A stretch of 43,579 nt of DNA from a virus (taxonomy: Duplodnaviria > Heunggongvirae > Uroviricota > Caudoviricetes), in IMG/VR virus record IMGVR_UViG_2671181030_000006. One strand, given 5' to 3'. The notes beneath the pieces are model-generated. The model had not been told where the DNA came from. It saw only the letters and a list, made by a program, of their open reading frames with translations, and did no database searches. Positions within the stretch are counted from its first letter, which is position 1. Each line of letters begins with the position of its first letter. The position numbers were made by a program, and so were the translations under genes. This document shows, piece by piece, positions 1 through 9,882 of the stretch.

Positions 1-1194
1 ATGATCACCGACACAAAGCTCAGGAAGGCGCTCGGCAAGAAAAGAGATGATATCGAGATTATTTCTGATTCGCACGGGCTCAACGCCAGAATCAGCCAGG
101 CCGGAAAAATATCATTTTTCTATCGGTATCGCTGGGCCGGTAAAGCGGTAAAACTCAATGTTGGTGATTATCCTGCAATGAGTATCACCCAGGCAAGAGA
201 GCGTCGCCAACAATTCAGAAACTGGTTAACTGAGGGACTGGATCCGCGAGAGCAGGTGAAGCTGGATAAGCAGACCCGACAGGAAGCGATGTCCGTTGCC
301 GAAGCGTTCAATTACTGGATTGAAAGGCACTGTATCGCTAACGGGCTAGTTAAAGTCGATTACTATCGCCAGGTGTTTGAGAAACATATCGCCGAACCGA
401 TGAAGAATGTCAAAGTCGATAACACAGCGAAAATGCACTGGATCAACGTCTTCGATTCTATAGAAAGCAGGGTGATGGCTCATTACATGCTTTCGCTGTG
501 CAAACGGGCGTTTAGGTTCTGCGTTAACAGAAGTGTGATCGCCTCAAACCCACTCGAGGGATTACTGCCATCTGATGTCGGGCAAAAGCCTAAAAAGAGA
601 ACTCGCAGGATGGACGATGACGATCTGCGCAAAATCTATCAGTGGTTGAAAAGCCATATGTCGATAGAGTCCGTTTTCCTGGTGAAATTTATTATGCTTA
701 CCGGATGCCGTACGGCTGAGATTCGACTTAGTGAGAGATCATGGTTTCGATTGGATGATAATGAGTGGGTCGTGCCTGCGGGCAGTTATAAAACTCGGGT
801 ACATATTAGAAGGGGGCTCTCAGACGCCGCCGTTAACTTGGTCAGAAATCACCTCAAGAAAATAAACACCAATCACCTGGTGACTTCACAACGTAAAATT
901 GATGGCGGGATCAAAGATTCGCCCGTTCATTCACCTGTGGCATCCAATTACGCCCGTTCTATTTGGAATGGAACAGGTATGGCAGAGTGGTCGCTTCATG
1001 ATATGAGGCGGACGATAGCCACAAATCTCTCTGAGTTAGGTTGCCCGCCGCACGTAATTGAAAAGCTGCTCGGGCATCAGATGGTGGGGGTTATGGCGCA
1101 TTACAACCTTCATGACTATATCGATGATCAGAAACACTGGCTCCGCGTTTGGCAGAGCCATCTTGAAGAGATCATCGGAGAGCCCTTCAGTTAA
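1..1194 (+). CDS. int: Tyrosine site-specific integrase, P4-type (N-terminal arm-binding region, C-terminal catalytic domain)
   Basis: Seen: 397-aa ORF; C-terminal HDMRRT...LLGH...HY catalytic-type residues; N-terminal [14 protein letters not shown] region typical of P4-like integrases. ATG is at window position 1, so upstream att and promoter are outside the window. Confidence 0.88.
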
Positions 1195-1433
1195 TTTATC
1201 TTCTTTTTATCCTCCCACTCTTTGATTGACTCAGAGCGCCAGCGGTTAGGGTTGCCGGGCCAGTCAGGGGGTGGGAACGGGCATACGAAGCCCCGAGGCA
1301 TTGTGTCTGCACTTTGCCATGACCAAAGGGTTTTGCGTGAAATTTTGTAGCGACTGGTCAGGTCTGACGTTACCAAAATATCATCCATAGCTCTCTCCAG
1401 TTGCCCGTTCGGGCCATTCAAAATCTTTTTCAA
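1191..1433 (-). CDS. xis: Excisionase / AlpA-like small DNA-binding protein
   Basis: Seen: 80-aa ORF convergent with int, with 4-bp end overlap. Inference from position and small basic HTH-like sequence ([11 protein letters not shown]). Confidence 0.55.
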
Positions 1434-1672
1434 CCAACCTGCCCGGGCAGGGAGCGGAGACGGCGCATGCCGGTCATCGCTGTGGCCACGTAGCTCGCCT
1501 TTCGGTTCACCACCTCCACCCAGACTTTCACGCCTTCAACCTTCACCGTATAAGTCTCTTTCATCTTGCTTCGCCCATAGTCGCCATATGTTTGCAAGTG
1601 AGCTGCCAGCGCGATGTCGCATGCTTGGCGAGCTAAAGGTGATTGCTTACTTCCTCGATTGATCAGTCGCAT
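1430..1672 (-). CDS. Hypothetical small protein, first gene distal to recT in the leftward operon
   Basis: Seen: 80-aa ORF whose stop overlaps the xis start (ATGA-type coupling). No recognised motif. Confidence 0.45.
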   Translation of the reverse strand: MRLINRGSKQSPLARQACDIALAAHLQTYGDYGRSKMKETYTVKVEGVKVWVEVVNRKASYVATAMTGMRRLRSLPGQVG

Positions 1673-1710
1673 ATAATCTCCTTGAGGGAGGGTTACCCCT
1701 CCCGGTCTCG

Positions 1711-2829
1711 TCAGGCCACGTATTCCGGTTTCATATCCGCCAGGGTGATGCTGAATTGATCGTGCAGTTCATCGCCTAAGTGACGCTTTGAAGATGCAAG
1801 CATGCGCTCGGCTTCAGCGAACCGTTCGGCTGCATGCGGCTCGTCGGGCTGGGGCAGGGATTTAATAGCCTCCTCAACCTTGTTGCGTGCATCCACTAGG
1901 TAATAACGCTTTACGGCTTTGTTTTTCAGCTCGGTGAATAGTGCGGATCCCAGCGTAGCTTTCGCCGTTTCAATGTCGGCACGCAGCGATTTGGCGCTAT
2001 CCACGTCCTGAGCAGATTCGATGCGTTCGCGGAAATCATCGGCAAGAGAGCCGACATTTACCGACGATTCCTGTGCGCTTTGCGTGGTTGTGACGGTGTC
2101 ACCTGAGATATCAGCCAGGCTAACGCGTTGCGGCGTTGGGTTGATCTCTTTTTCTGTGCGCTGTTCAATCTCATCAGGGGTGTACACACCAAGAACAACT
2201 GCAGGGCAATACAGGCGCGCCCAGTATTTGAGTGCCAGATAAGCGATCTGCTGTTTCGGGTTTGATACCCAAAGTGGAGAATTACGTGTGATTACGCTGG
2301 AGAGGAAAACAGGCTCTCCCCAGGTGATATCACTTTCACCGCGAATAACGGCACCTACCCGTACCGACAGTCCTTGTTCATCAGCACTTTCCCAACCGCG
2401 TACCATTTCTTTCTTGTCGTACGTCCCGCCACCTTTCGCAGGCTTTTTAACGGTTATCTCGCGGCTGCTGGCACATTTCGACCAGTCGCCCTCGTACTCA
2501 TAGTGAAAGCGGCCAACGATGGCGTTTGAGCTGGAGATCACCGCATTAACCAGTTGCGCTTCGTATCCCAGGACACCGTTAACCAGGTGCGTCTTTTGCG
2601 CCACGGCGTAAGGGTTCATACCCCACTGCATCGCCTGCATGATGATGGCCATGCAGTCTGCCGGATTGCCGCGGAGGTGCTCAGGCACCGTTACGGCTGC
2701 CTGTGCCATCAACCCGGCGACAGACTGAAGCTGGGTTAAAGCCTGCGCGTTGAAAATGGCATTGCTGGCTGAGATCGTGTTTGGAGTCTGCTGTTCAGCG
2801 GTTACGATATTCGTGTTTTCCATCATCAT
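1711..2829 (-). CDS. recT: RecT/Bet-family single-strand annealing recombinase (RecT-like)
   Basis: Seen: 372-aa ORF immediately downstream of, and same strand as, the RecE-like gene. Inference from the recE-recT gene pair arrangement as in Rac prophage; direct sequence recognition is weak. Confidence 0.6.
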   Translation of the reverse strand: MMMENTNIVTAEQQTPNTISASNAIFNAQALTQLQSVAGLMAQAAVTVPEHLRGNPADCMAIIMQAMQWGMNPYAVAQKTHLVNGVLGYEAQLVNAVISSSNAIVGRFHYEYEGDWSKCASSREITVKKPAKGGGTYDKKEMVRGWESADEQGLSVRVGAVIRGESDITWGEPVFLSSVITRNSPLWVSNPKQQIAYLALKYWARLYCPAVVLGVYTPDEIEQRTEKEINPTPQRVSLADISGDTVTTTQSAQESSVNVGSLADDFRERIESAQDVDSAKSLRADIETAKATLGSALFTELKNKAVKRYYLVDARNKVEEAIKSLPQPDEPHAAERFAEAERMLASSKRHLGDELHDQFSITLADMKPEYVA

Positions 2830-2834
2830 TCCCC

Positions 2835-5669
2835 TTATGCCTGAGTACGCAGCGCTTCAAGGCGGCGCAGGTCGAAGTCGTTCAGTTCGTCGGTGTAGTC
2901 AGCAGTGATTGGCGCTGGCCATTCACCTGTGTCGAATCCGGTTGCGATATTGCGCATCGCTTTGCGGTACTCGAGCATACCCAGCTCCAGTAGTTCAGCG
3001 GATGCCTCGATGATGGCGATCCAGTGGTAGTTCTCGTCTTTGTTGACGAAAATCCAGAAGAACTGATCCAGCGCTGCGGTTTCGCAGTACATAGCCGCGC
3101 TCAGGTGATAATCACGTTCAATAATTTCCCGGTGTAGCCTGGCGCGCAGGCTTTCCTGCTTAACATTCCACATGCTGATGGTTTTCAGGTCAGCACCGAT
3201 ACGCACGCCGTCTAGGTCGATCTCAAGGTCAGGGCGCACACGAACTTCCAGTCCCGTCTCCTCGTCAAAGCCAAAGTAGCTCACCTCAACGGCGCGGCTC
3301 GGGTGGGTTAGCAGCATGCCTGCGGTCGGGTGTGCCAGCAGGGCCGACTGGATGGCCTGGGCGGTCACCAGCTGCTGGCGCGTCACCAGAATCTTGTCGC
3401 CCGGATTTTCTCGCCAGGCGTCCAGCAGCTCGTCGGCGAATACGGCATCGGGTTTAACCGACTTAATCGCTTGGATCATTTCCGCTTTGCTGCCGGACAC
3501 CTTAAGCGGTGCCGGCTTCTGGGCTTCCTGCTCCACCAGGTCAGGGTTGATGATTGCCAGCTGTTCAAGCAGCGCATCGCGGCTGCCGCTGGTTTTAACC
3601 GGCGCGGGCAGGGTGGCGTTGTACTCTTTGATGCAGGCTTTCATAGCTGCTGCGGTCTGCTTCTGGTCTGGCTCGATGCGCTGGTACTCTGCCGGCAAAG
3701 CCATATAGCTCTGGGCCGTTTCCTCCAGGCTGGCGCCCAGCGGCAGCTGCGCGGGCAGGGTGGCGTTGTGCTCTTCAAGCAGCGCTTTGATATCGTCAGT
3801 GCTCAGCAGTGCCGGCAGGGTGGCGTTGTGCGAATCGATGAACTCGCGCAGGGTGGCGGTGGTAGTAAAAGCATCTTCCGGGATCTCCGGCTCCACGCTG
3901 AACTCTGCCTCAAGGTTTTCAGGCTGCAGCGCCAGGGCGTGAACCAGATTACCCATGTCCAGCACCTTGGAAGGGGCCCGCGGGATAGTTTTGGCGACGT
4001 GGCGCGCGTTGAAGTACATCAGGCTGACCCTGGCATCCTTCACCTGGGTGGAACTGATCCCGTTCGCCGCGTGATAAACGTCATTCGGCACGCCTTCATA
4101 GCGGCCCGGTTCGAAGTACGCCGGGTATTCCGGGACCGGTTGTGAAGGTTGCTCTTCCGGCGCGCTCGCTTTCTCCTCTGATGCTTCGGTGGTCAATTCC
4201 TGCGTAGTGGCGTTCGCCAGCTCCGGCGCCGCGGCGGAGAGCACCTCAGCCGGGTTCAGGGTATCTGTTTGCGGATCAGTTGCATCAGCGCTTTCGCCTG
4301 GTGGTACCGTATCAACAGTTTTGTCTTTCTCTGGCTGAGTCGCTTCCATCTGCACATCGCTGGTGGTCTCCACTACGGTTTCCGGTTTTTCTGCTTCATT
4401 TGAGGGAATATTGATGACCGGGTTAGTATTTCCACTCAACAGGCCATTGATGGAGAACATGCCACCGCCGAGGTTCGCGACCTGCGGCTGAGCTGTTGGT
4501 TCCTCAACCTCTACTTGCGTCTGAACCGCGGACGCGCGCAGGGGCATCAGTTCAGTTGCGGCGTTAAACTCAGCGGTCATGGTCTGGTTAACGAACTCCA
4601 GATGGGCCGCCGGCGTACGATGAATGTTTTCCGGTGCGATCCGTACCAGGTTGAAAATGGCCGCACGGTTTACCGACAGAACGCCAGGCTGGTTACGCAG
4701 AAGGGCGCTCCATGATTTCCAGGGCTCTTCTTTTTTCGCCACGATTTCTTTGGCGCGACGGTGAATGCTGCCCGGGATCTCAAGGTGGTTGAAATCCATC
4801 GGCAGCAGGGCACAGGCGATCTCCAGATCCAGTGTGTCCAGCGTGTGATGCGCACCTTCGCCGCGGTCGGTGACATATCCACCATCGGCATTGGTACCTG
4901 CGTCAGTGCGCTGAACACTACTGATGTGATTACCGGCAGCCCATTCACGCGCCAGGATGCCACGGTCAATGTAATCAGTCGCCGCCCACATTCTGGTGAA
5001 ACGGAGTACCAGCGCGAGTTCGTGACGCTTGTCCTGGCTGAACACTTTGCGAATGGCATCGGTGTAGCGCCACAGGTCTTTGGTGTCGTAACCCTTCACT
5101 TCCGGGCAGTTCTCAGCAGCTAACAGCAAGTTCTGGACGTAACTGTTATCAGTGTCCATCTCCAGCGCGCCGATAGCTTCGTACTCTTCGCGGGTTACGT
5201 GGTGGCGCAGTTCGTCGGCGGTGAACTGGGAAAGCAGTTGCTTACGAAACGGCATCTGCACTACCGGGTAGAGGGTTGAGTCGTCGTCGTGTTCGTCCAG
5301 CGTGATGCCAGCGGTTTCTGGCAGCGTTGACTCAGTAGTTATGTGACTATCAACGGTCTGAGCCGTTTTCTCGTCAGAGTTTTCAGCTGTGACTTTTGGC
5401 AGCCAGGTGCGGTCATCGTTCTGCAGTTCGTAGCGTTCGCACCAGGTGTAATCCACTGCGCCTTCTTCCGGCAGGTCGTCATATACCGGGAAATCGGTGC
5501 GGATTGGTTTGGCATAATCTTTACCGCGGCCAGTTTCTTCAATTCCGGCTTCTTCCAGTGCCACATCGAGTTGGAGATTGGCGCGCGCTACACTTTTCGC
5601 AGTGAACCAAATCACTGCATCTTTCTTGCCAGACTTCTGACTGGCTTTTATCAGATGGAAAAATTCCAT
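2835..5669 (-). CDS. recE: RecE-like exodeoxyribonuclease VIII (C-terminal PD-(D/E)xK-type nuclease), with internal tandem repeats
   Basis: Seen: N-terminal FPVYDDLPEEGAVDYTWCERYEL and TDRGEG motifs closely resemble recalled E. coli RecE. Start chosen at ATG 5669 (MEFFHLIKA...) with a GAGGA Shine-Dalgarno upstream; the track ORF extends to 5774. Confidence 0.8.
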   Translation of the reverse strand: MEFFHLIKASQKSGKKDAVIWFTAKSVARANLQLDVALEEAGIEETGRGKDYAKPIRTDFPVYDDLPEEGAVDYTWCERYELQNDDRTWLPKVTAENSDEKTAQTVDSHITTESTLPETAGITLDEHDDDSTLYPVVQMPFRKQLLSQFTADELRHHVTREEYEAIGALEMDTDNSYVQNLLLAAENCPEVKGYDTKDLWRYTDAIRKVFSQDKRHELALVLRFTRMWAATDYIDRGILAREWAAGNHISSVQRTDAGTNADGGYVTDRGEGAHHTLDTLDLEIACALLPMDFNHLEIPGSIHRRAKEIVAKKEEPWKSWSALLRNQPGVLSVNRAAIFNLVRIAPENIHRTPAAHLEFVNQTMTAEFNAATELMPLRASAVQTQVEVEEPTAQPQVANLGGGMFSINGLLSGNTNPVINIPSNEAEKPETVVETTSDVQMEATQPEKDKTVDTVPPGESADATDPQTDTLNPAEVLSAAAPELANATTQELTTEASEEKASAPEEQPSQPVPEYPAYFEPGRYEGVPNDVYHAANGISSTQVKDARVSLMYFNARHVAKTIPRAPSKVLDMGNLVHALALQPENLEAEFSVEPEIPEDAFTTTATLREFIDSHNATLPALLSTDDIKALLEEHNATLPAQLPLGASLEETAQSYMALPAEYQRIEPDQKQTAAAMKACIKEYNATLPAPVKTSGSRDALLEQLAIINPDLVEQEAQKPAPLKVSGSKAEMIQAIKSVKPDAVFADELLDAWRENPGDKILVTRQQLVTAQAIQSALLAHPTAGMLLTHPSRAVEVSYFGFDEETGLEVRVRPDLEIDLDGVRIGADLKTISMWNVKQESLRARLHREIIERDYHLSAAMYCETAALDQFFWIFVNKDENYHWIAIIEASAELLELGMLEYRKAMRNIATGFDTGEWPAPITADYTDELNDFDLRRLEALRTQA
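3600..3865. repeat. Intragenic tandem repeats (about 4 copies of CAGGGTGGCGTTGT on the + strand) inside recE
   Basis: Seen: copies starting near 3609, 3755, 3815 and a degenerate one near 3849; they encode repeated xHNATLPA peptide units in RecE. Confidence 0.75.
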
Positions 5670-5807
5670 GTGAGATCCTCTTTTTTGAGTGTTAGAATCC
5701 CCGGGCCAGAGATAGCGCCCATTGGATGTTTTTTGGTTTGGTATAAATTCCGGTGTAACTTTGGTCGGTGGCACCGGACGTGAATCCCGCCTTGCGCGGG
5801 GTTTTCG

Positions 5808-5969
5808 TTATGCTTCGTGGGCCATCTGGTCGAACGAAGCGCAACGTACTGAACAGTAATCACGTTGCTCGCGTTTCAACTGCGTGCCGTGGATAAAGAG
5901 CAGTTCGTTTTTAACTTCCTTCCCTTGCTTGATCGGCTTGCGGCAGTACGCGCATTTTTTCTCCTGCAT
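5808..5969 (-). CDS. Small zinc-ribbon protein (CxxC...C...C), YdaE-like position upstream of recE
   Basis: Seen: 53-aa ORF MQEKKCAYCRKPIKQ...DYCSVRCASFDQMAHEA, below the 60-aa ORF-track cut-off. Established knowledge: Rac prophage encodes a small zinc-binding protein YdaE near recE. Homology is inferred, not verified. Confidence 0.45.
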   Translation of the reverse strand: MQEKKCAYCRKPIKQGKEVKNELLFIHGTQLKREQRDYCSVRCASFDQMAHEA

Positions 5970-5980
5970 AACTCACTCCG

Positions 5981-6187
5981 TTAATGGCTAAGGCCATGTC
6001 CTAAACCGTTCAGATAAACTTCAACCAGCAAGTCGGTTGTGTAAGTCCGCTCAATCCCACGATGCAGATACAGGCGGCCGCGTTTATTTGCTGATGCTGT
6101 CCAGGTGCTTTCCCGATGCTTAACGAGCATCCCTGGGAGAACGGCGCCGCGGTTAACAGTCTGTGTCCCGTAATGATGACTAACCAT
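5981..6187 (-). CDS. Hypothetical small protein in the kil-like position of the leftward early operon
   Basis: Seen: ORF ending 12 nt before the zinc-ribbon gene start; internal ATG at 6187 chosen over the track start at 6247. Overlapping alternative frames exist, so the call is weak. Confidence 0.3.
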   Translation of the reverse strand: MVSHHYGTQTVNRGAVLPGMLVKHRESTWTASANKRGRLYLHRGIERTYTTDLLVEVYLNGLGHGLSH

Positions 6188-6368
6188 TGAACACCCCCGT
6201 GAAATGCATAATTTCGACAGCCAGGCCAGCCCAGAAAACCACACCAATGGCCAGCGCGATAACCAGTGAGCGAATGCCGTTTCTGCTCATACCGCACCCC
6301 AGCACTGAACGCTTACGAATGCGACCAAAGCCAACAACAGAGCCACCTTCACCTTGAATCTGTTCCAC
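6180..6368 (-). CDS. Possible small membrane peptide, first ORF downstream of OL/PL (36 aa from ATG 6290, or 62 aa from GTG 6368)
   Basis: Seen: hydrophobic single-helix sequence MSRNGIRSLVIALAIGVVFWAGLAVEIMHFTGVFNG. Inference only. Confidence 0.3.
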   Translation of the reverse strand: MEQIQGEGGSVVGFGRIRKRSVLGCGMSRNGIRSLVIALAIGVVFWAGLAVEIMHFTGVFNG

Positions 6369-6475
6369 GCAGGAACCTCATGTTCTCGGATCATCTCTTC
6401 ACCTTTGCCTTATCGCGGCTAACGGGACGTTTTGACTTCACCCCGGCGTTGCCGGTGTTGTTTGGATGAGATGAT

Positions 6476-6545
6476 AATACTCCTGGTATTATTTTATATC
6501 AATACCGCCAGTATTATTATGTTTAATAAAAATACTAAAGGTATG
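6476..6545. promoter_or_regulatory. OL-like operator cluster: three AATAC-N5-GTATT sites at 6476-6490, 6501-6515 and 6531-6545 (third has one mismatch); probable PL region
   Basis: Seen: the same 15-bp dyad motif recurs at OR next to cI. Established knowledge: lambdoid CI binds dyad operators at both OL and OR. Confidence 0.6.
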
Positions 6546-6615: not shown

Positions 6616-6819
6616 ATGTCAAATGAGGATGAGTTTTTCGCAGAGATGCACCCGCAGATAGCGCAGGTCATCGGGATAGCGGTTATGCAACTGCTGGTTG
6701 AGAAGCGCGAGCCCTCAAGAGAGGCGCTGATAGAGATGATTCAGGTGTTGTGGCAGGAAGACCAGGTCGATCTGGCTGTGGAGTTGGCGCTGGACGTGCT
6801 GATGCTGAGGGAAGAGTAG
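6616..6819 (+). CDS. Hypothetical small acidic protein (67 aa)
   Basis: Seen: ORF with AAAGGGG Shine-Dalgarno about 8 nt upstream; lies between the OL cluster and the convergent hairpin terminator. Confidence 0.45.
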   Translation: MSNEDEFFAEMHPQIAQVIGIAVMQLLVEKREPSREALIEMIQVLWQEDQVDLAVELALDVLMLREE

Positions 6820-6825
6820 GGCAGT

Positions 6826-6848
6826 AAAAACCCGGCGCGGTGGCCGGG
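6826..6848 (-). terminator. Intrinsic terminator (tIMM-like) ending the cI-cassette transcript
   Basis: Seen: hairpin CCCGGC-GCGGTG-GCCGGG; on the minus strand it is followed by TTTTT. Confidence 0.5.
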
Positions 6849-6855
6849 TGAGATA

Positions 6856-7788
6856 TTAAAGAACCGATTTAACAAGATGGTTTTTACGGTACAGACCTAT
6901 GCGATCATTGTGAATCTCAGTAGTCTCCACTAAAAGAGAAACAATCTGTCCGACCTTGTGTTTTTTTTGTATTAAATCTAGCATTTCAATCGGATAGGAA
7001 GCCTTTAAATGTTCACCACCAACATCAAGCTCCAGCTTCCCATATTTGGATAGAACGACCAGTTCGCCTGTAACCGTTTCAGTAATGGGAGGGGATGAAA
7101 TGGTTGATGTAAGTCTACTCACCAAGTACTTAATTTTATTGGAGTCAATAGTTGCCACCTTGGTGCCATTACTAAATGGACCGGTCCAACTTGCATCAAA
7201 TGTTAAGTTGTGTTTATCGCATTCCTCTACGATTCTCTTAAGGCTTACAGTGGAATTGTATCCAATTTCAGCGACGTGATTCATGAAGTTGTTGTCGTCA
7301 TCGCTTAACAACAAATCGAATATGCCTTTTACAGCCTTGCTGGGTACTGTTTCTACTAATTCTGCTATTCCTGTAGAGAAGGTGACGCCCAATTTTGTAG
7401 ACCCAGGGGATAAATCAGCCAGCCTGAGGTTTAAGGAGCTTTTCACGTCGTAGGGAACTTTTTTTGAGTCCTTGCCTGAGGCAATTTTGTGTGTTGCTCT
7501 TTGTATTAGCGCTGCAAGATTTGTTGAAATAGCCCCAAGCAGCTCTAAAGGAATAGAGCCAAAGTCAACCTCAGAGCCTTTCAGCCGCAGCTCAAAAAAA
7601 TCGATAAGTGGGTGCCGACTATCTTGCTTTAATTTTTCGGCCTTCAAATCGCTCAGATGAGAATCCATGGAGCGATAAAGAAGCATGTCAGCAAAGGACC
7701 TGGTTTTGTTTTGCTTCATTGCATCGACTTCTTTTTGAATGAAATCAATGCGTTTATCGCAATTTTTAAACATTGATTTATCATTCAT
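6856..7788 (-). CDS. Hypothetical 310-aa protein, distal gene of the AT-rich two-gene cassette at the rex-equivalent locus (candidate defence effector or sensor)
   Basis: Seen: long AT-rich ORF with GAGGA Shine-Dalgarno; start overlaps the upstream gene stop (ATGA). No motif recognised. Confidence 0.7.
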   Translation of the reverse strand: MNDKSMFKNCDKRIDFIQKEVDAMKQNKTRSFADMLLYRSMDSHLSDLKAEKLKQDSRHPLIDFFELRLKGSEVDFGSIPLELLGAISTNLAALIQRATHKIASGKDSKKVPYDVKSSLNLRLADLSPGSTKLGVTFSTGIAELVETVPSKAVKGIFDLLLSDDDNNFMNHVAEIGYNSTVSLKRIVEECDKHNLTFDASWTGPFSNGTKVATIDSNKIKYLVSRLTSTISSPPITETVTGELVVLSKYGKLELDVGGEHLKASYPIEMLDLIQKKHKVGQIVSLLVETTEIHNDRIGLYRKNHLVKSVL

Positions 7789-8264
7789 AAAAAAATCCTC
7801 ACTAACCCTTTCGGGTTTTCACTGCGATCAAAACCAAACCAACCGCGCCAGTAGCTACGCCAGTACTCATAATCATAGTTAGGGTCATCTAAATTCTTCA
7901 TGAGTAGTAGGACATCAATTTTGTAGTTTTGTTTGATGTAGTTTCGGTCAAGCAAATTATCGACGCGGCCCCGAAGCATGACAGGTATTGAGTTTATATT
8001 GCTATAGTCACATACCAACAAAATATCAATATCATCAGGCTCTGGTTTAGACGTGGTGTATGAACCATCAACCCATATTTCTGTAAAACAGCCATATTGA
8101 GCAGATAATTCTCGAATAGATTCGAGTAGCTGTATAAAATTACAGTATAGCATGCCTCGCCTGGATGATGAAGGAAAGCAATCGACACAATACGATTTTA
8201 ATCCAGCTTCATCCATGTCATGGAACCCTGGCTCAAACAGGGGTGGGTAATTAATTTTATCCAT
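7785..8264 (-). CDS. Minimal nucleotidyltransferase-fold protein (GS-x9-DxD motif), proximal gene of the AT-rich cassette
   Basis: Seen: IWVDGSYTTSKPEPDDIDILLVCD matches the Pol-beta-type NTase signature hG[GS]-x9-13-DhDh. ATG 8264 chosen; the track start at 8312 is GTG. Confidence 0.7.
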   Translation of the reverse strand: MDKINYPPLFEPGFHDMDEAGLKSYCVDCFPSSSRRGMLYCNFIQLLESIRELSAQYGCFTEIWVDGSYTTSKPEPDDIDILLVCDYSNINSIPVMLRGRVDNLLDRNYIKQNYKIDVLLLMKNLDDPNYDYEYWRSYWRGWFGFDRSENPKGLVRIFL

Positions 8265-8413
8265 AAAAAACCTTGCTATACATTTGTTTTTTTTTATTAA
8301 AAATCTAACCACCGAAATGGTGACGGCAAGATGTTACATGGGGTTACAATCAGCCAATACACCGCATTAAATAATTTTTTCACCAGCTATGCGCCGACCA
8401 GAACACCTTGCCC

Positions 8414-8574: not shown

Positions 8575-9285
8575 TCACACAAGTCTCAACTTAGTTTCTA
8601 CAGCCACACCAATGATCCGGCAATTCCCATTGATGGGAACCAATGGCCATTGAGGGTTTAAGCCCTTCAGGTACTTCTGGCCCCCATCAATAATCAGCTT
8701 TTTGAATGTCGCTTCGTTTGATTCGGATAGCTTTGCGATCACAAGGCTGCCATTTACTGGCTCTCGGCCGGTATCAAACAAAACGTAGGTACCCTCTGGT
8801 ATGCTGAGCCCGACCGGGGCAGTCATGGATTCCCCCTCGACCAACAACCAGAACGCATCCCCCTGGATGTGAGCGTCTGATTCTAGCCATAGATCGATAT
8901 CTTTAAGTGCATACGGCTCGCACGCTTCCGACCAATGCCCAGCCTGAATCTTGCTTAATACAGGGTATTTAATGCCTGGGGTGTACTGGCCTGCATACTT
9001 GGCATTCGATGTAGCGGAAGCACTCATTGCAGATATTTCTTTCGCAAGGCTGGGGCTAAAATCAGAGACATCCACCTGGAGGGCTCTGGCAAAAACAGCA
9101 GCCACGGCAGCATTAAGGGCATTCCTGCCATTCAAGTAATGCCCAACGCCCCCCTGAGATATGTCTAGCATGTCAGCTATTGATTGCTGTGTTATCCCAA
9201 GCTCTTTTTTCTTGGCTTCATAGAGGGCTTTCAGCCTTTCTGCGTCAGCGATCTGAGCCGATGTCAGTGTCTTTTTCTTTTCCAT
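8575..9285 (-). CDS. cI: CI-type prophage repressor: N-terminal HTH plus C-terminal LexA-like S24 autopeptidase domain
   Basis: Seen: HTH region (ITQQSIADMLDISQGGVGHYLNG), probable Ala-Gly cleavage site (IQAGHW), Ser (GESMT) and Lys (FKKL) catalytic-type residues. ATG 9285 chosen; the track begins at TTG 9291. Confidence 0.9.
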   Translation of the reverse strand: MEKKKTLTSAQIADAERLKALYEAKKKELGITQQSIADMLDISQGGVGHYLNGRNALNAAVAAVFARALQVDVSDFSPSLAKEISAMSASATSNAKYAGQYTPGIKYPVLSKIQAGHWSEACEPYALKDIDLWLESDAHIQGDAFWLLVEGESMTAPVGLSIPEGTYVLFDTGREPVNGSLVIAKLSESNEATFKKLIIDGGQKYLKGLNPQWPLVPINGNCRIIGVAVETKLRLV

Positions 9286-9296
9286 TTTCAAATAGT

Positions 9297-9358
9297 AATA
9301 CCAATGTTCTTATTTTAAAAATACTAGCGGTATTGCAATGTTTAATACTTGTGGTATT
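9297..9358. promoter_or_regulatory. OR-like operator cluster between cI and cro: AATAC-N5-GTATT at 9320-9334 and 9344-9358 plus a degenerate copy at 9297-9311; probable PRM/PR region
   Basis: Seen: perfect dyad sites 24 bp apart in the divergent cI/cro intergenic region, same motif as at OL. Confidence 0.65.
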
Positions 9359-9660: not shown

Positions 9661-9882
9661 ATGGAGCGTTCAACGACACGCAACAAAGTGGAGGCTCGCA
9701 GGATAGAAAGCTGGTTACACAGCCAGATAGCTGAACTGGGAACCACGAATATCGCCAAAGTGGCCGGAGTGAATAAGTCGACGGTGAGTCGCTGGCGGGA
9801 AAGTCTGCTGCCGAACATGTCGCTACTGCTGGCCATCCTGATTTCTAACAGGCCGGGAGAGAAAGGTGATTTTGAAGCATGA
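9661..9882 (+). CDS. cII: CII transcriptional activator
   Basis: Seen: RIESWLHSQIAELGTTNIAKVAGVNKSTVSRWRESLLPNMSLLLAIL closely resembles recalled lambda CII. Confidence 0.85.
   Translation: MERSTTRNKVEARRIESWLHSQIAELGTTNIAKVAGVNKSTVSRWRESLLPNMSLLLAILISNRPGEKGDFEA

Follow-up and report, generated by a model that had tools for sequence, protein, structure and literature searches.

The window, a 43,579-nucleotide stretch of DNA from a virus of the Caudoviricetes, contains four closely packed minus-strand genes after a PL-like promoter: orfA, orfB, kil and a ydaE-like gene, which are followed by recE. An earlier note on this DNA had described several overlapping small ORFs between OL/PL and recE. 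They are located as it described and lie on the minus strand, and each of the four is kept as an intact ORF in many related prophages. The genes orfA and orfB are joined by an ATGA overlap, orfB and kil by an overlap of 8 nt, and kil and ydaE are separated by an 11-nt gap. Each of the four ATG codons is preceded by a Shine-Dalgarno (SD)-like motif at a distance of 4–6 nt. The next gene of the operon, recE (exonuclease VIII family; 2835..5669, minus strand), starts at 5669 and forms the left boundary of the small-ORF cluster. Its product matches the Pfam models Exonuc_VIII (3e-22) and DUF3799 (7.5e-11) and is named 'RecE family exodeoxyribonuclease' in relatives (RefSeq). Annotation of the four small genes is found across E. 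coli ECCRA-119 and JNQH497, the Klebsiella phages GZ7, Mulock and ST101-KPC2phi6.1, and coliphage mEp237. Genes of this kind were said to be frequently misannotated or left unannotated, which does not apply here: YdaE, Kil and both membrane peptides are annotated in RefSeq or GenBank relatives. Many of the loci compared below are near-identical Klebsiella prophages, so that locus counts do not correspond to independent events.

The early-left control region contains three operators of the form AATAC-N5-GTATT (OL; 6476-6490, 6501-6515 and 6531-6545, unstranded; repeat family D1, inverted repeats I1-I3). The same sequence is also found three times at OR (9297-9358), beside the gene for a LexA-like CI (8575..9291). 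A PL-like sigma-70 promoter (6474..6502, minus strand) is embedded among the OL operators, with TTGATA at 6502..6497, a 17-nt spacer and TATTAT at 6479..6474. It matches 10 of 12 consensus positions in a consensus scan, and the operators together with the embedded promoter uphold the OL/PL assignment made earlier. Judged by this consensus match it is a candidate promoter, from which transcription would start near 6467. The 5' leader of the early-left transcript (6395..6467, minus strand), located between PL and the first ORF, carries the motif GCGATAAGGCAAAGG. Of 102 related loci, which span different immunity regions, 84 have this motif, GYGAYAAGG(G)CAR, ahead of kil. The leader folds no better than shuffled sequences (z = 0.2), and Rfam has no match there. 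Regarding a KilS-like sRNA as in Rac, the Rac upstream region shows no obvious similarity, and a literature search gave nothing.

The 68-aa ORF (kil; 5981..6187, minus strand), with the SD-like motif GGGGGTG 4 nt ahead of its ATG, encodes a homologue of the KilR family of cell-division inhibitors. The protein matches phrog_294, 'Kil protein for bacterial septation inhibition' (9.7e-34), the same PHROG as Rac KilR (7.5e-35), and BLASTP aligns it to Rac KilR with 39% identity (E 8e-16). Against NF008465, 'FtsZ inhibitor protein', it reaches 68.4 bits (E 4e-19, profile positions 1-68 of 73). Because this score lies below the cutoff of 92, Kil is a relative and not a member of the narrow K-12-type KilR subfamily. 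The same protein is named 'phage encoded cell division inhibitor protein' in RefSeq, and its homologues carry a precomputed PF27398 assignment in 114/114 cases, many under the name 'cell division inhibitor protein'. The pN/pS ratio of kil is 0.03-0.09 in frame versus 3.4-15 out of frame. The 68-aa ORF should thus be a genuine Kil-type host-interference gene, with a predicted division-blocking activity. Kil-like host-interference genes had been proposed for this cluster in the earlier note, and the general idea was right, since a Kil-type gene does lie inside the interval. It is borne out by the 68-aa ORF, which had not been singled out, and not by the 53-aa or the 36-aa ORF, the two that had been highlighted. 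No small ORF of the window matches the lambda-type Kil families (phrog_3924, phrog_2461 and phrog_2055), and tblastn with lambda Kil gave no match in the window.

Two longer ORFs that overlap kil and orfB, of 88 aa (TTG at 6247) and 95 aa (GTG at 6297), were rejected. Stops interrupt the kil frame within orfB in every unique sequence (45/45), and the alignment of the Kil N-terminus with the start of Rac KilR also argues against extending it. Both out-of-frame readings over kil, the 95-aa frame among them, look non-coding (pN/pS 3.4-15), and over orfB the 95-aa frame is neither hydrophobic nor marked by any conserved property.

Rac kilR (E. coli K-12 b1352) encodes a protein that inhibits FtsZ as well as the localisation of MreB. 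It shares with the window gene the N-terminal M-x-x-H-H-[YF]-G-T sequence, an identity that spans residues 1-59, and the same location within the PL operon, ahead of ydaE and recE. The window Kil is 68 aa long and Rac KilR 73 aa, and the C-terminal tails, NGLGHGLSH (9 aa) in the window and GRDGLPVKAESW (12 aa) in Rac, are unrelated in sequence. In Rac, kilR is preceded by a long untranslated region that includes the KilS sRNA, whereas in the window two overlapping membrane-peptide genes precede kil. The AF2 model of Kil (pLDDT 84) shows a six-strand beta barrel formed by residues 7-59, with irregular ends and a loose tail (residues 60-68). Two residues of the tail, G63 and L66, are conserved within the window-type subfamily. 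KilR was described as having a core of beta-sheet and short N- and C-terminal ends that lack structure (PMC12482147), in agreement with the predicted all-beta core and irregular tail of Kil. KilR affects FtsZ and MreB, its C-terminal tail is essential for toxicity, and tail length tunes both toxicity and the MreB effect (PMC12482147). As the tails of the two proteins differ, the activity spectrum of Kil could differ from that of KilR.

The 53-aa ORF (ydaE-like; 5808..5969, minus strand; MQEKKCAYCRKPIKQGKEVKNELLFIHGTQLKREQRDYCSVRCASFDQMAHEA), which is preceded by the SD-like motif GGAGTGAG, contains cysteines at positions 6, 9, 39 and 43 (C-x2-C ... C-x3-C). The protein scores 99.4 bits against NCBIfam NF041288, above the cutoff of 35 (E 8.7e-29, profile positions 1-50 of 50), and its homologues from the database carry a precomputed PF27493 assignment in 39/39 cases. 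In an alignment of 21 sequences that includes Rac YdaE, residues C9, C39, C43, Q48, M49 and E52 are invariant, and conservation is at least 90% at C6, A50 and H51. The structural model adopts a TRASH/eL24-like treble-clef fold that brings the two Cys pairs together. The ORF had been described as a CxxC zinc ribbon; the Cys4 protein is present, but the modelled fold is not a classical zinc ribbon. By its NF041288 score the protein belongs to the YdaE family, and the paired cysteines of the model make it a putative zinc binder. A search of PDB sequences with the YdaE profile returned only insignificant eL24/MYM matches. A YacG-type DNA gyrase inhibitor was rejected, as the YacG model gives an E value of 0.94 and the YacG fold match is weaker than that to generic eL24/TRASH.

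Alignment with Rac ydaE and kilR had been suggested as a check, and both comparisons are positive: in addition to the relationship of Kil to KilR, the 53-aa protein is 50% identical to the product of Rac ydaE (b4526, annotated 'zinc-binding protein'). The two YdaE proteins share the Cys4 pattern, the C-terminal DQMAHE and the place between kil and recE. The first Cys pair is C-x2-C in the window protein and C-x4-C in the Rac and Salmonella types. The gene order of Rac, recE-(racC)-ydaE-kilR, is that of the window, except that racC, located between ydaE and recE in Rac, is absent from the window. Among kil loci, ydaE is present in 16/16 with recE downstream and in 0/77 without recE, indicating that it follows recE and not kil. 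No feature marks the protein as Kil-like. YdaE, which E. coli K-12 also has, shows strict linkage to recE within this sample, so that recombination or DNA-end biology would be a better place than killing to look for its role. These assignments are mainly of corrective value: the candidate for host killing is an ordinary gene of the KilR family, the zinc-finger ORF encodes the YdaE of the RecET block, and both are already named publicly.

The first ORF of the operon, orfA (6287..6394, minus strand; MIREHEVPAWNRFKVKVALLLALVAFVSVQCWGAV), encodes a 35-aa single-pass membrane peptide and has the SD-like motif AAGGTGA 4 nt ahead of its ATG. The right edge of the interval originally noted (6368) cuts through the gene. 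The peptide contains one transmembrane helix. Allele groups of 35, 36 and 38 aa are found in related loci, and all retain the MIRE N-terminus, the transmembrane helix and the ATGA overlap. The pN/pS ratio is 0.18-0.29 in frame versus 0.8-2.3 out of frame, and the counterpart in the Klebsiella phages GZ7 and Mulock is annotated 'membrane protein'. A lipoprotein was considered and rejected: there is no canonical lipobox (Q/P/F at -1), and processing would leave a mature peptide of no more than 4-8 residues.

The second ORF, orfB (6180..6290, minus strand; MSRNGIRSLVIALAIGVVFWAGLAVEIMHFTGVFNG; SD-like GGGGTG 4 nt ahead of its ATG), corresponds to the 36-aa single-helix hydrophobic peptide of the earlier note, which is confirmed. 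It contains one hydrophobic helix, and its best 19-residue Kyte-Doolittle window averages 2.45. The length is 36 codons in 90/90 loci with an M[VI]SHH-type kil and in 117/117 usable loci found from the orfB side; the orfB searches used a 62-aa form in the protein database and a degenerate DNA pattern. Across 30 protein variants the 19-residue hydropathy window remains at 2.25-2.81 (30/30). Residues M1, S2, R7, S8, L9 and G32 are invariant, Trp20 is present in 28/30, and the basic N-terminus is kept despite heavy divergence of the helix. The alternative open frame is not hydrophobic. An identical protein (P0031) is encoded on 831 contigs as 'hypothetical protein [Klebsiella]', and public records say only "hypothetical". 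The pN/pS ratio of orfB is about 0.8, no better than in other frames, and does not indicate purifying selection at the amino-acid level. Its translation may consequently matter more than its product. The orfB alleles are saturated, which makes codon-position variability uninformative. Overall, the 36-aa ORF appears to encode a real, conserved membrane peptide, for which toxicity is possible.

A 62-aa reading of the orfB frame from a GTG start (6180..6368) is an over-extension and lacks conservation. Most alleles contain a stop 6-7 codons upstream of the ATG, and across the orfA region the extension has a pN/pS of 0.8-1.0 versus 0.2-0.3 for the orfA frame. The 62-aa form is the one annotated by PGAP in E. 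coli ECCRA-119.

The genes that follow orfB vary. Through an identical 8-nt overlap, orfB is joined downstream to any of three mutually unrelated genes, of which two are Kil-type: the KilR-type gene, an 80-aa lambda-Kil-type gene and an uncharacterised 64-aa gene (phrog_3722), which takes the place of KilR between identical flanks. BLASTP does not align the 80-aa protein with lambda Kil; the two are linked by PHROG profiles and weak tblastn matches. A profile comparison of phrog_3722 with the Kil alignment gave no relationship (probability 0.6%). It is conceivable, although we consider it unlikely, that orfA-orfB is a conserved two-peptide inner-membrane cassette and the constant partner of interchangeable division-inhibitor genes. 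If the linkage of orfB is functional, the peptides could represent a new class of Kil co-factors or a CIII-like modulator acting on a membrane target, for example FtsH or the divisome, and phrog_3722 could represent a third, unrecognised family of phage cell-division inhibitors. The peptide pair, conserved across Klebsiella-type lambdoid prophages and coupled to these three genes, offers a cheap and testable entry to early phage membrane micro-proteins and makes phrog_3722 a candidate division inhibitor.

The 53-aa zinc protein, the 36-aa membrane peptide or both could themselves be Kil-like toxins, apart from or besides the 68-aa gene. Both ORFs lie in the PL operon and adjoin kil. Small hydrophobic peptides are often membrane-toxic when expressed, which favours the 36-aa peptide in this role, and orfB immediately precedes three different small genes, of which two are Kil-type, as would fit a shared function in host interference. 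The kil function is, however, already explained by a bona fide KilR homologue. The linkage of YdaE to recE and the poor YacG match speak against the zinc protein. Neither orfA nor orfB matches a toxin family in Pfam, NCBIfam, PHROGs or PADLOC, and both are wholly absent from E. coli-type kil loci and Rac. We regard additional toxins of this kind as improbable.

A role of orfA and orfB as mere translated leaders, or of orfB as an ORF without a functional protein, that deliver ribosomes to kil and keep its expression low is doubtful to a similar degree. The ATGA and 8-nt overlaps and the location of the kil SD inside orfB would suit such a function. So would the pN/pS of orfB and the fact that the conserved C-termini, CWGG in orfA and GVFNG in orfB, coincide with the SD of the next gene. 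It does not account for the properties kept by the orfB variants, namely the hydrophobic window, the basic N-terminus (30/30) and Trp20, none of which is seen in the other open frame, nor for the fixed length of 36 codons. In orfA, purifying selection is clear in its own frame, and a pure coupling leader would not need a membrane helix.

Another candidate role is that of a lambda CIII stand-in, in which orfB, possibly joined by orfA, would interfere with FtsH as a transmembrane peptide and thereby protect CII. In lambda, cIII directly precedes kil, with an overlap of 32 nt; orfB has the equivalent position with its 8-nt overlap, so that in both systems a small early gene of the PL operon runs into the division-inhibitor gene that follows it. 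A CII-type protein is encoded in the window (9661..9882; annotated 'CII family' in relatives). A homologue of lambda CIII was not found in the whole window, nor in 224 compared loci except for lambda's own. FtsH is membrane-embedded and could be reached by a transmembrane peptide. On the other hand, the sequences of the window Kil and orfB show no relationship to those of lambda Kil (phrog_3924) and CIII (phrog_550). Neither orfB nor orfA shows similarity to CIII, with no phrog_550 match and no tblastn match in the window at E <= 1. Lambda CIII is not a transmembrane peptide and acts via an amphipathic helix. Many CII-encoding phages have no recognised CIII, and position alone is weak evidence in mosaic phages. 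We consider a CIII-like function very unlikely.

A type I toxin-antitoxin-like module, with a small hydrophobic toxin under antisense RNA control, is barely credible: the peptides are small and hydrophobic and a plus-strand terminator-like hairpin (6443-6455) lies opposite the leader, but no plus-strand promoter is predicted within 6180-6440, Rfam has no match on either strand of 6180-6470, orfA and orfB match no family such as Hok, Ldr, Ibs or TisB in Pfam, nor any in NCBIfam, and the genes belong to a repressor-controlled lytic operon and are not under a constitutive promoter.

Most probably, the interval makes up the promoter-proximal section of a lambdoid PL operon of the Rac type, in which Kil interferes with the host, YdaE belongs with recE-recT and orfA and orfB encode membrane effectors. 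This reading is based on gene structure, conservation, family membership, fold models and linkage, from which we infer promoter use, translational coupling and biochemical activities. In the lysogen, the LexA-like CI would bind the three OL operators and keep the early-left operon silent. Upon loss of CI, PL would fire, and a single transcript would be translated into orfA, orfB, kil and ydaE, with recE and recT to follow. The first products would be orfA and orfB, single-pass inner-membrane peptides with a probable N-in orientation. The stop/start overlaps make it likely that ribosomes translating orfA and orfB are passed on to kil. By homology with Rac KilR, host interference would come from the 68-aa Kil, which would block FtsZ-ring assembly, and possibly affect MreB too, so that induced cells would cease to divide and would filament. 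The Cys4 YdaE-family protein would be a part of the recE-recT recombination block and not of the killing function. The peptides orfA and orfB most likely act as small effectors in the membrane, alongside a division-inhibitor gene that is interchangeable. The content of the interval is thus one of known, already-annotated gene families and an uncharacterised peptide pair.

The related phages display the two halves of this arrangement separately. GZ7 and Mulock resemble the window in having genes, with identical overlaps, for a membrane protein (35-38 aa), a hypothetical protein (36 aa) and a cell division inhibitor; unlike the window, they contain GamL-Bet-Exo and lack ydaE. Coliphage mEp237 has the kil-ydaE-recE order of the window and matches window positions 1-6187 (int to kil) at 93% identity, with 48% of a 12-kb query aligned in two pieces, but orfA and orfB are absent. 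The window combines a Klebsiella-type orfA-orfB-kil head with an mEp237-type ydaE-recE-recT arm.

Four small genes, all on the minus strand, occupy the region between the early-left promoter PL and recE: orfA (6287..6394, 35 aa), orfB (6180..6290, 36 aa), kil (5981..6187, 68 aa) and a ydaE-like gene (5808..5969, 53 aa). They are followed by recE (minus strand, start at 5669), which matches Pfam Exonuc_VIII at 3e-22. The stop of orfA and the start of orfB share an ATGA, the overlap between orfB and kil is 8 nt long, and an 11-nt gap separates kil from ydaE. A purine-rich SD-like motif lies 4–6 nt upstream of every ATG (AAGGTGA for orfA, GGGGTG for orfB, GGGGGTG for kil and GGAGTGAG for the ydaE-like gene). 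The interval 5808-6368, proposed in an earlier note as a cluster of Kil-like host-interference genes, covers ydaE, kil and orfB and clips orfA, because its right end is the GTG from which the orfB frame can alternatively be read as 62 aa. This longer reading, which PGAP annotates in a single E. coli genome, is not conserved; most alleles contain a stop 6–7 codons upstream of the orfB ATG.

The cluster does contain a Kil-like gene, but its sequence identifies this as the 68-aa ORF and not the 53-aa Cys4 ORF or the 36-aa peptide named in the earlier note. The 68-aa protein matches phrog_294 ('Kil protein for bacterial septation inhibition') at 1e-33, the same PHROG to which KilR of the E. coli K-12 prophage Rac belongs. 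The suggested comparison with Rac kilR yields 39% identity over residues 1-59 (BLASTP, E 8e-16), and relatives are named 'phage encoded cell division inhibitor protein' or 'Kil protein' in RefSeq and GenBank. The gene is under strong purifying selection, with a pN/pS of 0.03-0.09 in-frame versus 3.4-15 out of frame.

KilR was described as a protein with a beta core and unstructured ends that acts on both FtsZ and MreB, and its C-terminal tail is essential for toxicity in a length-dependent manner (PMC12482147). The 68-aa Kil is consistent with this description. However, it scores 68 bits against the narrow KilR model of NCBI, under the cutoff of 92, and its tail consists of 9 residues (NGLGHGLSH) compared to 12 in Rac KilR (GRDGLPVKAESW). 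These differences place the gene in the KilR family at large but outside the K-12 subfamily, and its balance between FtsZ and MreB effects may differ from that of KilR.

The 53-aa Cys4 ORF encodes YdaE. Its score against the NCBIfam model NF041288 ('YdaE family protein', cutoff 35) is 99.4 bits; it also matches phrog_1520 at 3e-29 and shares 50% identity with K-12 Rac YdaE. In related E. coli prophages, RefSeq gives the equivalent gene the name 'YdaE family protein'. Across 21 aligned homologues, C9, C39 and C43 never vary, C6 is present in at least 90%, and the C-terminal D-Q-M-A-H-E stretch is largely kept, with Q48, M49 and E52 invariant. An AlphaFold2 model (pLDDT 88) predicts a knuckle, a beta hairpin (19-38) and a helix (41-52). 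In some JGI records, homologues appear as 'YacG/DUF329 gyrase inhibitor', a name unsupported by the YacG model (E 0.94) or by a PDB profile search.

The distribution of ydaE argues against a Kil-like role. Among 102 loci fetched by Kil similarity, counting those with enough downstream sequence, ydaE is present in 16/16 kil loci with recE downstream and in 0/77 with another downstream module (mostly GamL-Bet-Exo), counts that overstate independence since the sample was seeded on Kil and many loci are close relatives. The linkage spans three Kil sequence types, Rac among them. As ydaE tracks recE and not kil, we would assign YdaE to the RecET block. The strict linkage hints that the uncharacterised K-12 YdaE may belong functionally with the RecET recombination module.

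The 36-aa hydrophobic peptide, also listed in the earlier note, holds up as a real ORF. orfB is exactly 36 codons long in each of the 90 loci with an M[VI]SHH-type Kil, and again in 117/117 usable loci from an independent search with a degenerate DNA pattern for the orfB 5' end. All 30 distinct protein variants have a basic N-terminus, MS[RK][NQ]GIRSL, and reach a hydropathy of 2.25-2.81 in a 19-residue window, and Trp20 is present in 28 of them; neither the hydropathy nor the N-terminal property was found in the sole other open frame over the region. The pN/pS of about 0.8 does not tell the frames apart. Selection appears to act on the length, ends and hydrophobicity of orfB over its exact sequence. 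For orfA, pN/pS is 0.18-0.29 in-frame versus 0.8-2.3 out of frame. Its allele groups differ in length (35, 36 and 38 aa), and each retains the N-terminal MIRE, a single transmembrane helix and the ATGA overlap. The conserved C-termini (CWGG in orfA, GVFNG in orfB) overlie the SD of the next gene, so that some of what is conserved here is nucleotide sequence. Both peptides are absent from Rac and from E. coli-type Kil loci (coliphage mEp237 and relatives), so Kil function does not generally depend on them.

The gene overlapping the orfB stop varies among the 117 loci. It is of KilR type in 39, an unrelated 64-aa phrog_3722 protein in 75 (beginning MANSIPNNGRAVMMRN, e.g. in viral contigs L107 and L109 of the orfB-search set L104-L223), and an 80-aa protein in 3. 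The N-terminal part of the latter matches the lambda-Kil PHROGs phrog_2055 (1.7e-7) and phrog_3924 (1.6e-3), which contains lambda Kil itself. A comparison of phrog_3722 with the Kil profile gave a probability of 0.6% (hhalign). The 64-aa and 68-aa genes share identical flanks, orfB 5' and GamL-Bet-Exo 3', and the same 8-nt orfB overlap: one is an allelic replacement of the other, which makes phrog_3722 a candidate non-homologous substitute for Kil. It is conceivable, but rather unlikely, that orfB serves as a fixed partner to a set of exchangeable division inhibitors, or as a CIII-like factor. In lambda, cIII lies immediately 5' of kil with a 32-nt overlap. The window encodes a CII-type regulator (9661..9882, plus strand); no lambda-CIII homologue was found in its 43.6 kb (tblastn E <= 1), and among the fetched loci only lambda's own was. 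Alternatively, the conserved orfB/kil junction may simply be a recombination seam in mosaic phages.

The cI-type repressor gene (8575..9291, minus strand; phrog_4 at 7e-49, LexA/UmuD-like C-terminal part) is followed on the minus strand by two accessory genes and an AT-rich control region. This region contains three AATAC-N5-GTATT operators (OL; 6476-6490, 6501-6515 and 6531-6545), and the motif recurs three times at OR (9297-9358). A leftward sigma-70-like promoter is predicted inside the OL operators (minus strand; TTGATA 6502..6497, 17-nt spacer, TATTAT 6479..6474), so the previous OL/PL assignment is sound at the level of sequence. PL is separated from the first gene by a leader of about 73 nt. 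It carries the motif GYGAYAAGG(G)CAR at about 6400..6432 (minus strand), also seen in the leaders of loci L006 and L010-L018; the motif is found 5' of kil in 84/102 related loci and spans phages with different operators, with or without orfA and orfB. In E. coli-type loci it is preceded by AACGTTCCGCCAGCCTGGCG. Neither an N gene nor a recognisable nutL was found in the window.

The analysis shows how the genes are built and conserved, which families they belong to, how they are modelled to fold and what they are linked with; the course of events that follows is inferred. Loss of CI would free PL, and the early-left transcript would be translated from orfA onward, with the overlaps handing ribosomes to kil. 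Kil would then stop Z-ring assembly, and perhaps affect MreB too, so that induced cells filament. YdaE may work with or beside RecE and RecT, and the orfA and orfB peptides could enter the inner membrane in N-in orientation, with some membrane component as their target.

The window is a mosaic. Positions 1-6187 (int to kil) match mEp237 at 93% identity in two pieces, covering 48% of a 12-kb query, and the orfA-orfB head and control region are of Klebsiella type. The segment 5600-6900 is found at >=80% coverage in 2 of 5426 complete E. coli genomes (92% identity). A protein identical to orfB is listed in RefSeq as 'MULTISPECIES: hypothetical protein [Klebsiella]' and occurs on 831 contigs; no family in Pfam, NCBIfam, PHROG or PADLOC describes it. 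orfA is already annotated as a membrane protein in GZ7 and Mulock. Since Kil and YdaE are named families and orfA and orfB annotated hypotheticals, the genes are of known kinds.

Several neighboring elements were observed. Between the ydaE-like gene, whose stop is at 5808, and the start of recE lies a candidate IsrB-like small RNA (5711..5806, plus strand), antisense to the operon. It covers the full Rfam RF01386 model at 30.4 bits (gathering score 35; E 7e-4 on a 300-nt region), lies beside a promoter-like site (5670-5698, plus strand) and ends in a GC hairpin and T run (about 5786-5806). In Salmonella, isrB-1 and isrB-2 are flanked by sbcA (recE) and STM1010/STM2631, with the orientation <- -> <- (PMC2330248, Table 1). 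The orientation is the same here, and the RNA looks like a syntenic homologue. At the rexA/rexB position, between cI and OL, two minus-strand genes (7785..8312 and 6856..7788) match the PADLOC candidate anti-phage system PDC-M63 (PDC-M63A 2.4e-41, PDC-M63B 7.5e-45) as well as phrog_9194 and phrog_6603; coliphage mEpX1 carries the same pair (99.5% identity over aligned pieces). Between OL and this pair, there is a 67-aa acidic ORF (6616..6819, plus strand; phrog_3946 at 1e-39), which several relatives list as hypothetical. The GC-rich hairpin after it (6830-6849) has a terminator score for the converging genes of the minus strand.
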